Shown here piece by piece: positions 34,687-36,172 of a DNA stretch of 64,000 nt. How positions within the stretch are numbered: the stretch's first letter is position 1; each line of letters opens with the position of its first letter. A program made the position numbers and the translations under genes. The stretch spans positions 298,125-362,124 of the forward strand of contig CAVPJG010000006.1 of the NCBI GenBank assembly GCA_963705205.1. The letters are read 5' to 3'. Under the pieces are notes generated by a model. That model was given only the letters and a program-made list of their open reading frames with translations. It made no database searches and was not told the origin of the DNA. Origin of the DNA: an uncultured Thermoleophilia bacterium (GTDB lineage: Bacteria > Actinomycetota > Thermoleophilia > UBA2241).

Positions 34687-35885
34687 CCGAGAACGCATGC
34701 TGCGGCGGTGCGTCGCCTGCGCCACCGGAGGGACACGCCGGCTGCAGCGAGCCGGCGGAGCCGGCGTGCTGCCGGACGCAGGCGCCAGAACCGCCTCAGA
34801 GCTCGTGCTGCGGAGCGCCGGGCGACGCGCCGGCGGACTACGCCTACGGCCCAGAGTCCTACGTGGTCGGCGCGGTGCAGACCCCCGCCGGCCTGGTCCC
34901 GCGCATCAGCGCCGAGCTCGGGCGCGCCGACCGCCTGGGGACCTGGCGGGTGCGGTGGGGGATCGGCCGCAGCGACTACCGCGTGCGCCCCGGTCTGTAC
35001 GCGCTCGGAGAGCCCGGGGCCGCCTCGCCGGTGCTCGTCACCGCCAACTACAAGCTCACGTTCGACGTCCTGCGCAGCTCCCTGGGCGAGTCCGGTGTCT
35101 GGCTGCTCGTCGTCGACACCCGCGGGATCAACGTCTGGTGCGCGGCCGGCAAGGGGACCTTCTCGGCCGAGGAGGTCGCGCGGATGGTGCGCGAGACGCG
35201 ACTGGACGAGGTCGTCGAGCACCGCAGGCTCGTGCTGCCGCAGCTGTCCGCCCCCGGCGTCGCCGCGCACCGGGTGAAGGAGGCCTGCGGTTTTCGCGTG
35301 ACCTTCGGACCCGTGCGAGCCGCGGACATCCACGCCTTCCTGGCCGCCGGCATGCAGGCCGACGCCACCATGCGCACCGTGACCTTCGGCCTCGGCGAGC
35401 GCGTGGCGCTGGCGCCGGCGGAGCTCCAGTACCTCTGGGACCGCCGGATGCTGCTCGCCTACGCCGGGGCGATCGCGGTCTCGAGCGTCGACGGCGACGG
35501 CGTCTCGCTCCGCCGCGGCCTGCGCCGCGGCCTGCCGATCGTCGGCGCCGCGGGGCTCGCCGTGCTCGCCGGCGGCGGCATCACGCCGGCGCTGCTGCCG
35601 TGGCTGCCCGGGCGCTCCTTCTCGCTCAAGGGGGCCACCGTCGGCGTCGCCGTAGCCGCCGGCACCGTGGTGGCGGCGGGCGGCAGGCTCTCTCCCGCCG
35701 CCAGGCTGGCGGTGCTCGCAGGCGTACCGGCTGCCGCCTCCTACGCCGCGATGAACTTCACCGGGTCCTCGCCGATCACCTCGCCCTCGGGGGTCGAACG
35801 AGAGATGCGACGCGCTCTGCCCCTCCAGGTGGCCGCAGCCGCCTTTGCCGTCGGCGGCTGGCTCGCGGCGAGATCGGGGAGGTGA
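34683..35885 (+). CDS. hgcA: HgcA-like corrinoid protein (CFeSP-type corrinoid domain + C-terminal membrane domain) with Cys-rich N-terminal extension
   Basis: ATGA overlap with the thioredoxin-like gene. Cap-helix signature GINVWCAAGKGTF (NVWCAAGK at 35130-35153). The C-terminal half is hydrophobic, with LLPWLPGRSFSLKG and NFTGSSPITSPSGVERE. The N-terminus has ACCGG, PACCRT and SSCCGAPG. Confidence 0.8.
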   Translation: MTENACCGGASPAPPEGHAGCSEPAEPACCRTQAPEPPQSSCCGAPGDAPADYAYGPESYVVGAVQTPAGLVPRISAELGRADRLGTWRVRWGIGRSDYRVRPGLYALGEPGAASPVLVTANYKLTFDVLRSSLGESGVWLLVVDTRGINVWCAAGKGTFSAEEVARMVRETRLDEVVEHRRLVLPQLSAPGVAAHRVKEACGFRVTFGPVRAADIHAFLAAGMQADATMRTVTFGLGERVALAPAELQYLWDRRMLLAYAGAIAVSSVDGDGVSLRRGLRRGLPIVGAAGLAVLAGGGITPALLPWLPGRSFSLKGATVGVAVAAGTVVAAGGRLSPAARLAVLAGVPAAASYAAMNFTGSSPITSPSGVEREMRRALPLQVAAAAFAVGGWLAARSGR

Positions 35886-36172
35886 GGCGGCCTGTGGCCC
35901 AGCTGCGGTACATCGAAGAGGCCGTCACCCTCGCGCTCGACGAGTCCCTCTGCAACGGCTGCGGGCTCTGCGTCGCCGTCTGCCCGCGAGCCGTCTTCGC
36001 GATGAGCGGAAGGCGAGCCGCGCTGGTCGATCGCGGCGCCTGCCTCGAATGCGGAGCGTGCGCGCTCAACTGCGTGCCCGGCGCCATCAGCGTCGATCCC
36101 GGCGTCGGCTGTGCGCAGGCGATCATCAACGGCTGGCTGACCGGGGGCGAGCCCAGCTGCGACTGCGGGTGA
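35882..36172 (+). CDS. hgcB: HgcB-like 2x[4Fe-4S] ferredoxin
   Basis: GTGA overlap with the hgcA-like stop (alternative GTG at 35894). CNGCGLCVAVCP and CLECGACALNC (36041-36061) cluster motifs, GVGCAQA, and the C-terminal Cys pair SCDCG. About 96 aa. Confidence 0.75.
   Translation: MRRPVAQLRYIEEAVTLALDESLCNGCGLCVAVCPRAVFAMSGRRAALVDRGACLECGACALNCVPGAISVDPGVGCAQAIINGWLTGGEPSCDCG

Follow-up and report, generated by a model that had tools for sequence, protein, structure and literature searches.

A 64,000-nucleotide stretch of contig CAVPJG010000006.1 from an uncultured Thermoleophilia bacterium (GenBank assembly GCA_963705205.1; this whole stretch is called the window here and all positions are numbered within it) carries the gene pair hgcA and hgcB on its forward strand. 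We propose, with a probability of about 85%, that the hgcB gene codes for HgcB, the 92-amino-acid (aa) ferredoxin subunit, with two [4Fe-4S] clusters, of the mercury methyltransferase HgcAB. To our knowledge, HgcAB is the only enzymatic route to methylmercury, and risk estimates therefore draw directly on how correctly hgcB is recognized in environmental genomes. The genes and the junction between them are as follows.

34683 to 35885, + strand: hgcA, 400 aa, with an N-terminus rich in Cys, a domain for corrinoid binding, and a hydrophobic, putative membrane domain at the C-terminus
35878 to 35887, + strand: ribosome-binding region GGAGGTGAGG, which includes the hgcA stop codon at 35883-35885 and a GTG at 35882-35884
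35894 to 36172, + strand: hgcB coding sequence, 92 aa, most likely with a GTG start, and with a TGA stop, placed by the match to NF040864, the alignment of orthologue starts, and the lengths of homologues

The initial annotation of this DNA had named the gene HgcB-like, and this identity is borne out by a score over the cutoff of the NF040864 family model, by HgcA directly upstream, by an equivalent of Cys73 and conserved tail cysteines, and by a structural search in which a model of a known HgcB is the top match. On the NCBIfam equivalog NF040864 (mercury methylation ferredoxin HgcB) the protein reaches 113.5 bits, above the cutoff of 99, and covers profile positions 1-87 of 93. The next-best match, to the HgcAB-like fusion model NF043039, reaches 51.8 bits (cutoff 285), and the score on PorD/KorD (TIGR02179) is 38.8 bits, under the cutoff of 60.05. 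As a negative control, the other dicluster ferredoxin of the window (29893 to 30123) was scored on NF040864 and gave 33.3 bits. A protein database search returned 814 homologues at E <= 1e-5, the best of them 93-96% identical, and an exhaustive search of 50% cluster representatives returned 256 proteins at E <= 1e-10. Matches P0082, P0110, and P0111 carry the NCBI label 'mercury methylation ferredoxin HgcB', and P0082 is named 'HgcB [Thermoleophilia bacterium]' by NCBI.

Linkage to hgcA was followed in 81 loci, namely, 80 loci from an HgcA search of genome contigs and L081, an ENA/NCBI contig that is 88% identical to the window at the DNA level. An HgcB homologue lies immediately 3' of hgcA in 78 of the 81, which removes the doubt, raised in the initial annotation, that the best homologues might be generic ferredoxins with no link to hgcA. 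The closest genome relatives are metagenome-assembled genomes (MAGs) of uncultured Thermoleophilia/Actinomycetota, with an HgcA identity of 66-70%.

The partner protein was assigned on two grounds, the cap helix N(V/I)WC(A/S)(A/G/S)GK and a score over the cutoff of the HgcA equivalog NF040863 (mercury methylation corrinoid protein). Its cap helix, NVWCAAGK at residues 150-157, is among the six strings that the consensus protocol allows there at high stringency (PMC10087281), and its score on NF040863 is 402.6 bits (cutoff 275) over positions 1-322 of 325. Pfam CdhD also matches HgcA. A hydropathy scan of residues ~265-398 gave four clear hydrophobic stretches and a weaker one that is Ala/Gly-rich. 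At the other end of the protein, residues 1-60 (34683-34860) are of low complexity, Pro/Ala-rich, and contain three vicinal CC pairs (ACCGG, ACCRT, and SCCGA); N-terminal extensions with CC are present in 54 of the 81 hgcA loci, across phyla.

Cluster motifs, Cys73, and the C-terminal tail

The cysteines of HgcB fall into four features. Conservation is given for A1, an alignment of 54 sequences.

35951 to 35983, + strand: first [4Fe-4S] motif, C20-x2-C23-x2-C26-x3-C30-P (CNGCGLCVAVC); C20, C23, C26, C30, and P31 are invariant
36041 to 36073, + strand: second [4Fe-4S] motif, C50-L-E-C53-G-A-C56-x3-C60 (CLECGACALNC); the cysteines are invariant
36110 to 36112, + strand: Cys73 (GVGC), the additional cysteine ~12 residues past the second motif, where the C-terminal helix begins; invariant
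36158 to 36166, + strand: Cys89-Asp-Cys91 pair in a short flexible tail; each of C89 and C91 is kept in 90% or more of the sequences

Both CX2CX2CX3C motifs that the initial annotation had pointed out, CNGCGLCVAVC and CLECGACALNC, and likewise its extra Cys in GVGCAQA and its terminal SCDCG, are present in the translation of 35882 to 36172, which is VRRPVAQLRYIEEAVTLALDESLCNGCGLCVAVCPRAVFAMSGRRAALVDRGACLECGACALNCVPGAISVDPGVGCAQAIINGWLTGGEPSCDCG followed by the stop. In the 92-aa protein the cysteines at 20/23/26/30/50/53/56/60/73 have the residue numbers of the HgcB of strain ND132 (Pseudodesulfovibrio mercurii, Desulfovibrio desulfuricans), a mercury-methylation ferredoxin of 95 aa that has been studied experimentally; our comparison with it rests on a Foldseek alignment and on the residue numbers quoted in PMC7305189. 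In ND132 HgcB the clusters are on cysteines 20/23/26/60 and 50/53/56/30, with Cys73 in addition (Cooper et al., PMC7305189), and the C73A mutation abolishes methylation (PMC7305189).

The first motif is followed directly by Pro and the second by V-P; the immediate Pro is also absent in several hgcA-linked orthologues. Within the second motif the residue after the first Cys is variable. C[LIM]ECGAC is present in 115 of 120 close homologues (42 with Leu, 39 with Ile, and 34 with Met), CLECGAC is in none of 84 diverged representatives, and one of these has Thr at the Leu position. The Leu variant CLECGA is therefore a trait of this actinobacterial clade. The consensus protocol for the recovery of hgc genes defines hgcB by the literal string C(M/I)ECGA, as a high-stringency filter (PMC10087281). 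Since the position varies among hgcA-linked orthologues and the window's protein passes the curated profile, we take C(M/I)ECGA for a working filter, derived from reference sequences, and not for a defining property or a demonstrated functional requirement. Applied literally, it would drop the whole actinobacterial clade with CLECGA.

Conservation extends to the tail. The last residues are CxC, or CxC and one more residue, in 98 of the 120 closest homologues, nearly always as EPSCDC or EPSCDCG, and thus the tail cysteines, whose possible absence in orthologues had been named in the initial annotation as a ground for doubt, are conserved. The segment GWLTGxEPxCDC is also found in HgcB of Desulfuromonadales, Bacteroidales, Bacillota, and other MAGs. 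Outside the clade CDC or CGC is usually followed by a short Gly/Ser-rich stretch that ends in C or CC. In the 84 HgcB-like representatives (50% clusters) the tail cysteines are distributed as follows, with CxC in the tail of 44.

Both CxC and CC: 38 of 84
CC only: 26 of 84
CxC only: 6 of 84
None or a single Cys only (many probably truncated): 14 of 84

The window's HgcB is thus the minimal-tail form, in which the proximal C-x-C is kept and the distal CC is missing. Tails of HgcB have up to four cysteines with variable spacing (PMC7305189), and in ND132 either Cys94 or Cys95 alone is enough, the double mutant being down 95% in activity (PMC7305189). Because the tail cysteines are variable and a single one is sufficient in ND132, C-x-C in place of CC is within known variation. 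Hence the tail difference noted in the initial annotation is real, but it is normal family variation and not an anomaly. The clade has the smallest natural HgcB tail, with a single C-x-C pair, and so it offers a clean natural test of the number and spacing of tail thiols.

AlphaFold2 modeling on an alignment of 54 sequences gave a best model with a mean predicted local distance difference test score (pLDDT) of 77.6 and a predicted template modeling (TM) score of 0.64. In this model the ferredoxin core spans residues 13-67, with pLDDT 83-92 in blocks of 10 residues, a helix beginning at Cys73 occupies residues 72-83, and residues 84-92, which bear the CDC pair, are unstructured with low pLDDT. 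The top Foldseek match in a PDB-derived library is 9a0b_B (E = 3.6e-6, TM score 0.63, and 49% identity over 79 columns), which is chain B of the deposited computed HgcAB model of ND132 (Cooper et al.) and outranks generic ferredoxin domains. A sequence search of PDB chains found no experimental HgcB structure and returned only generic Fe-S domains (polyferredoxins and hydrogenase/Hdr subunits).

Reading frame, start codon, and end of hgcB

The hgcB gene is a real, conserved gene. The G+C content of the window is 70%, and that of the hgcB frame is 0.68/0.58/0.89 by codon position, the value of 0.89 at position 3 being what is expected of a real gene in a 70% G+C genome. The comparison of hgcB with its counterpart in L081, the 88%-identical relative, gave 11 synonymous against 5 non-synonymous codon changes, which suggests that the gene is under purifying selection.

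The initial annotation had started hgcB at GTG 35882, so that the gene overlapped the stop codon of hgcA. To place the start we aligned the hgcA/hgcB junctions of eight Actinomycetota orthologues (L001-L006, L081, and the window). The string GGAGGTGA, which holds the Shine-Dalgarno sequence and the hgcA stop, is kept across the junctions, with GAAGGTGA instead in L002 and L004. In the orthologues the start codon, ATG in L001-L004 and GTG in L005, L006, and L081, is 8 nt past the conserved Shine-Dalgarno string and three codons ahead of a conserved Leu-Arg-Tyr (LRY); the homologous codon in the window is GTG 35894. The spacer from the ribosome-binding site to this codon is 3 nt longer than in the orthologues, and a second GAGG lies 6 nt 5' of it. 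A length of 91-92 aa is found in 76 of the 120 closest database proteins, with M/V-x-x-LRY as the N-terminus. The GTG at 35882 is made up of the final G of GGAGG and the first two bases of the hgcA stop, and we rejected it as the start because the orthologue starts align elsewhere and GGAG abuts it without a spacer. The most likely start, judged from these alignments, is GTG 35894, 12 nt downstream of GTG 35882, and this would leave a gap of 8 nt after the hgcA stop (35885) and no overlap. Thus the bases GTGA are indeed at the junction (GTG at 35882-35884 and TGA at 35883-35885), but neither the use of this GTG as a start nor the overlap of hgcB with the hgcA stop held up; it is at arsE/hgcA that a start and a stop codon do overlap.

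At the 3' end, read-through of the TGA as selenocysteine was considered, as HgcB selenoproteins with GVGU exist, and was rejected. The selenocysteine-prone position is a normal Cys here, and read-through would add six unconserved residues (APSGR past the recoded codon) before a TAG, where the orthologues stop at CDC or CDCG. A pattern scan past hgcB found no intrinsic terminator, and the 52-nt spacer there folds no better than its shuffles (z = +1.0). The hgcB copies in L004 (~9224-9500) and P0048 go out of frame a little past the second cluster motif, ahead of GVGC or at it. Disrupted tails of this kind, such as '...RRRLRAGDHQRVADRS...', look like single-base assembly frameshifts and not like real variants.

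The ars operon and the substrate of HgcAB

The genes that surround hgcA and hgcB are the following.

32904 to 34043, + strand: acr3, arsenite efflux transporter and first gene of the operon; TIGR00832, 457.8 bits (cutoff 282.8)
34040 to 34408, + strand: arsR, 122 aa, with a CVC motif (ERCVCEM); NF033788 and HTH_5; its ATG overlaps the acr3 stop
34432 to 34686, + strand: arsE-type thioredoxin-like gene, 84 aa, TTG start; TIGR00412, 98.4 bits, and Pfam Thioredoxin_3; its stop overlaps the hgcA ATG
36225 to 36638, - strand: second arsR, 137 aa, with a CVC motif (GLCVCEF), convergent with hgcB; a 93%-identical counterpart is in the same place in L081
36746 to 37579, + strand: arsM, arsenite methyltransferase; NF008823, 326.1 bits (cutoff 263)

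Start and stop codons overlap as ATGA at acr3/arsR (34040-34043) and at arsE/hgcA (34683-34686), and therefore acr3-arsR-arsE-hgcA-hgcB forms one tightly packed operon. The order acr3-arsR-(arsE)-hgcA-hgcB recurs in L002, L003, L004, L007, and L081, all of them Thermoleophilia/Actinomycetota MAGs, and the arsE counterpart in L081 is likewise of 84 aa. In L005 and L006 hgcAB is present without ars genes within reach, and outside the phylum an acr3 or arsR homologue is near hgcA in about 10-15 of the 81 loci. In a scan for ArsR operator palindromes, the region upstream of acr3 gave only weak inverted repeats and that upstream of arsM gave none. The locus is one of the tighter examples of hgcAB in an ars operon and so bears on what HgcAB is for.

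It has been reported that hgcAB is present in MAGs of Thermoleophilia (order UBA2241) and Coriobacteriia (McDaniel et al. 2020, PMC7438021), and that it can be flanked by acr3, arsC, arsM, and arsR (PMC7438021). In ND132 the transcription of hgcAB is ArsR-dependent and responsive to arsenic, and a link to arsenic resistance has been proposed; a ∆hgcAB strain of ND132 is sensitive to AsV (bioRxiv 10.1101/2022.10.17.512643). The link between hgcAB and arsenic has been reviewed again in PMC10349881. The linkage of hgcAB to ars genes, the presence of hgcAB in Thermoleophilia, and the variability of the tail cysteines are thus already published, and this locus overturns no current understanding.

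With purified HgcAB of ND132, S-adenosylmethionine (SAM) methylates the Co(I) corrinoid and the two HgcB clusters mediate electrons, and the tail cysteines of ND132 HgcB have been proposed to handle Hg (PMC11588087). Carried over from the ND132 enzyme to the host, an uncultured Thermoleophilia-like actinobacterium, the mechanism would be as follows. HgcB would be translated from its own GTG 35894, behind the GGAGG that contains the hgcA stop, and hgcAB would be expressed from an ArsR-controlled ars operon; as the last gene of acr3-arsR-arsE-hgcA-hgcB, hgcB would probably be induced by arsenite through the CVC-type ArsR. Cys20/23/26/60 and Cys50/53/56/30 would hold the two [4Fe-4S] clusters, which are predicted to pass electrons to the corrinoid of the membrane protein HgcA and reduce it to Co(I). 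SAM would then methylate Co(I) and the methyl group would move to Hg(II), with Cys73 and Cys89-x-Cys91 as putative thiolate ligands that bring Hg(II) in and take methylmercury out. The sequence comparisons show the family of the protein, the conservation of its motifs, its linkage to hgcA, and the layout of the operon; the binding of clusters, the transfer of electrons, the handling of Hg, and the induction by arsenite are inferred.

Several points weigh against the assignment of this protein as the HgcB of a mercury methyltransferase. The literature found holds no assay of any HgcAB from Actinomycetota, and methylation by the clade is a prediction. The setting in an ars operon is compatible with a physiological substrate other than mercury. 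The tail lacks the vicinal CC of ND132, the CLECGA of the second motif fails the literal C(M/I)ECGA, and only one of the five AlphaFold2 models is confident, the other four having mean pLDDT values of 41-46.

The main live alternative to an ND132-type mechanism is a different physiological substrate, arsenic or another metalloid, and not a different identity, and the operon layout hints at it. According to this alternative the protein is HgcB by descent, but HgcAB works in arsenic or metalloid detoxification, is induced by As(III), and uses its thiols and corrinoid on an arsenical or another soft metalloid, mercury methylation being a side reaction or absent. The position of hgcA and hgcB at the end of acr3-arsR-arsE-hgcA-hgcB, with its ATGA overlaps, and the recurrence of this gene order in the five related loci favor it, as do the adjacent arsM and ArsP-family permease and the response of ND132 hgcAB to ArsR and arsenic together with the AsV sensitivity of the deletion strain. 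In addition, both flanking ArsR proteins have CVC, which has the same spacing as the CDC of the HgcB tail. In classical ArsR the As(III) site has the CVC spacing. We nevertheless consider this alternative unlikely, although it is the one most in need of weighing: no HgcAB is known from biochemical work to act on arsenic, the locus already encodes a dedicated ArsM, and the CDC motif is widespread in HgcB of loci without ars genes. Moreover, arsM is missing from L081, and no ars genes are within reach of hgcAB in L005 and L006, which shows that the linkage of hgcAB to ars genes is not obligatory. A more specific and still more doubtful proposal is that hgcAB in this clade is an arsenite-induced module of the ars operon, joined to it by the arsE/hgcA ATGA overlap, and that the minimal C-x-C tail of HgcB, with the CVC spacing of the neighboring ArsR proteins, is adapted to pass an arsenical and not Hg(II) to the corrinoid. 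If true, this would indicate what HgcAB natively does, a function that has long been sought.

That the gene codes for a generic dicluster ferredoxin that is a mere neighbor of a corrinoid protein and has no role particular to HgcB is very improbable. It is true that the Pfam matches are to generic Fer4 domains alone, that the PDB search gives polyferredoxins and hydrogenase/Hdr subunits, and that many homologues are just 'ferredoxin' in JGI labels. However, the protein passes the HgcB cutoff, at which the window's other dicluster ferredoxin fails with its 33.3 bits, conservation reaches beyond the ferredoxin core to the GVGC Cys73, the helical extension, and the tail cysteines, and the linkage to hgcA is near-universal. 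Membership in the non-methylating group of fused HgcAB-like paralogues of the Pyrococcus type can hardly be defended, as the weak NF043039 matches (51.8 bits for HgcB and 191.4 bits for HgcA) are both far under the cutoff, a stop codon and 8 nt separate two genes, and the HgcA model is matched in full (1-322 of 325), membrane domain included. We therefore retain the assignment as HgcB of an HgcAB mercury methyltransferase.

The remaining observations concern the neighboring DNA. The CVC spacing of both flanking ArsR proteins is unlike that of the atypical ArsR2 upstream of hgcAB in ND132. A strong sigma-70-like promoter lies at 36677-36704, ahead of arsM, in a part that is common to the window and L081. 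The two are colinear on both sides of arsM, and L081 has ~25 nt in place of 36727-37592. A tblastn search finds acr3 in L081 at 6900-8120 with 96% identity, yet the genes called at that place are only pieces of 38 and 151 aa, which suggests frameshift errors or a pseudogene in a long-read MAG. The minus-strand genes that diverge from acr3 are a Metallophos+ArsP_1 open reading frame (ORF) and genes for a DUF2703 protein, a 76-aa ferredoxin, and a radical SAM/SPASM enzyme. The first, a 651-aa ORF at 30818-32773 (- strand), combines an ArsP_1-family permease with a calcineurin-like metallophosphoesterase domain; its counterpart in L081 is two overlapping genes of 249 and 405 aa, and the ORF may be a real fusion or may have lost a stop. 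The other three, at 28764-30757 (- strand) and 3' of the permease, are also in L081. The DUF2703 protein has CCG motifs and a C-terminal CCC, and the 76-aa dicluster ferredoxin, at 29893 to 30123 (- strand), is the protein used above as the negative control and is not HgcB. The three genes may make up another thiol-rich module for metals or metalloids.

Comparison with known systems

The HgcB of the window and that of ND132 have in common the cluster cysteines 20/23/26/30/50/53/56/60, a Cys73 with which the C-terminal helix begins, a position right after hgcA, and two cysteines near the C-terminus. They differ in the tail, which in the window is Cys89-x-Cys91 followed by a single Gly and in ND132 ends in the vicinal Cys94-Cys95, and for this reason the window's tail is 3 residues shorter. 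They also differ in the second motif, CLECGA in the window and CMECGA in ND132, and in the residues after it, V-P and P, respectively. The host of the window's gene is a high-GC actinobacterium, and its hgcAB is in an operon with acr3, arsR, and arsE, whereas ND132 has an ArsR-like gene alone.

The nearest counterparts are the HgcB proteins of Thermoleophilia/Actinomycetota MAGs (L003, L006, L081/P0003, and P0082), which are 74-96% identical to the window's protein, are 91-92 aa long, end in EPSCDC(G), and frequently have CLECGA or CIECGA; several of these loci share the order acr3-arsR-arsE-hgcA-hgcB. This is the clade that McDaniel et al. 2020 (PMC7438021) reported. The window differs from them in having arsM just past the convergent arsR, where L081 has none, and in the spacer between the ribosome-binding site and the start codon, which is 3 nt longer. 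HgcB proteins of Desulfuromonadales, Bacteroidales, and Bacillota (L010, L029, L049, and L067) have GWLTGxEPxCDC ~16-18 residues past Cys73, as in the window, but they continue for 3-10 or more residues past CDC and end in C or CC, whereas the window's protein stops at CDC-G. The fused HgcAB-like protein of the Pyrococcus furiosus type (NF043039) has a corrinoid domain and ferredoxin motifs in common with the window, but it is one polypeptide and has been reported to be non-methylating, whereas the window has two genes whose products score under the cutoff of 285 for that family.

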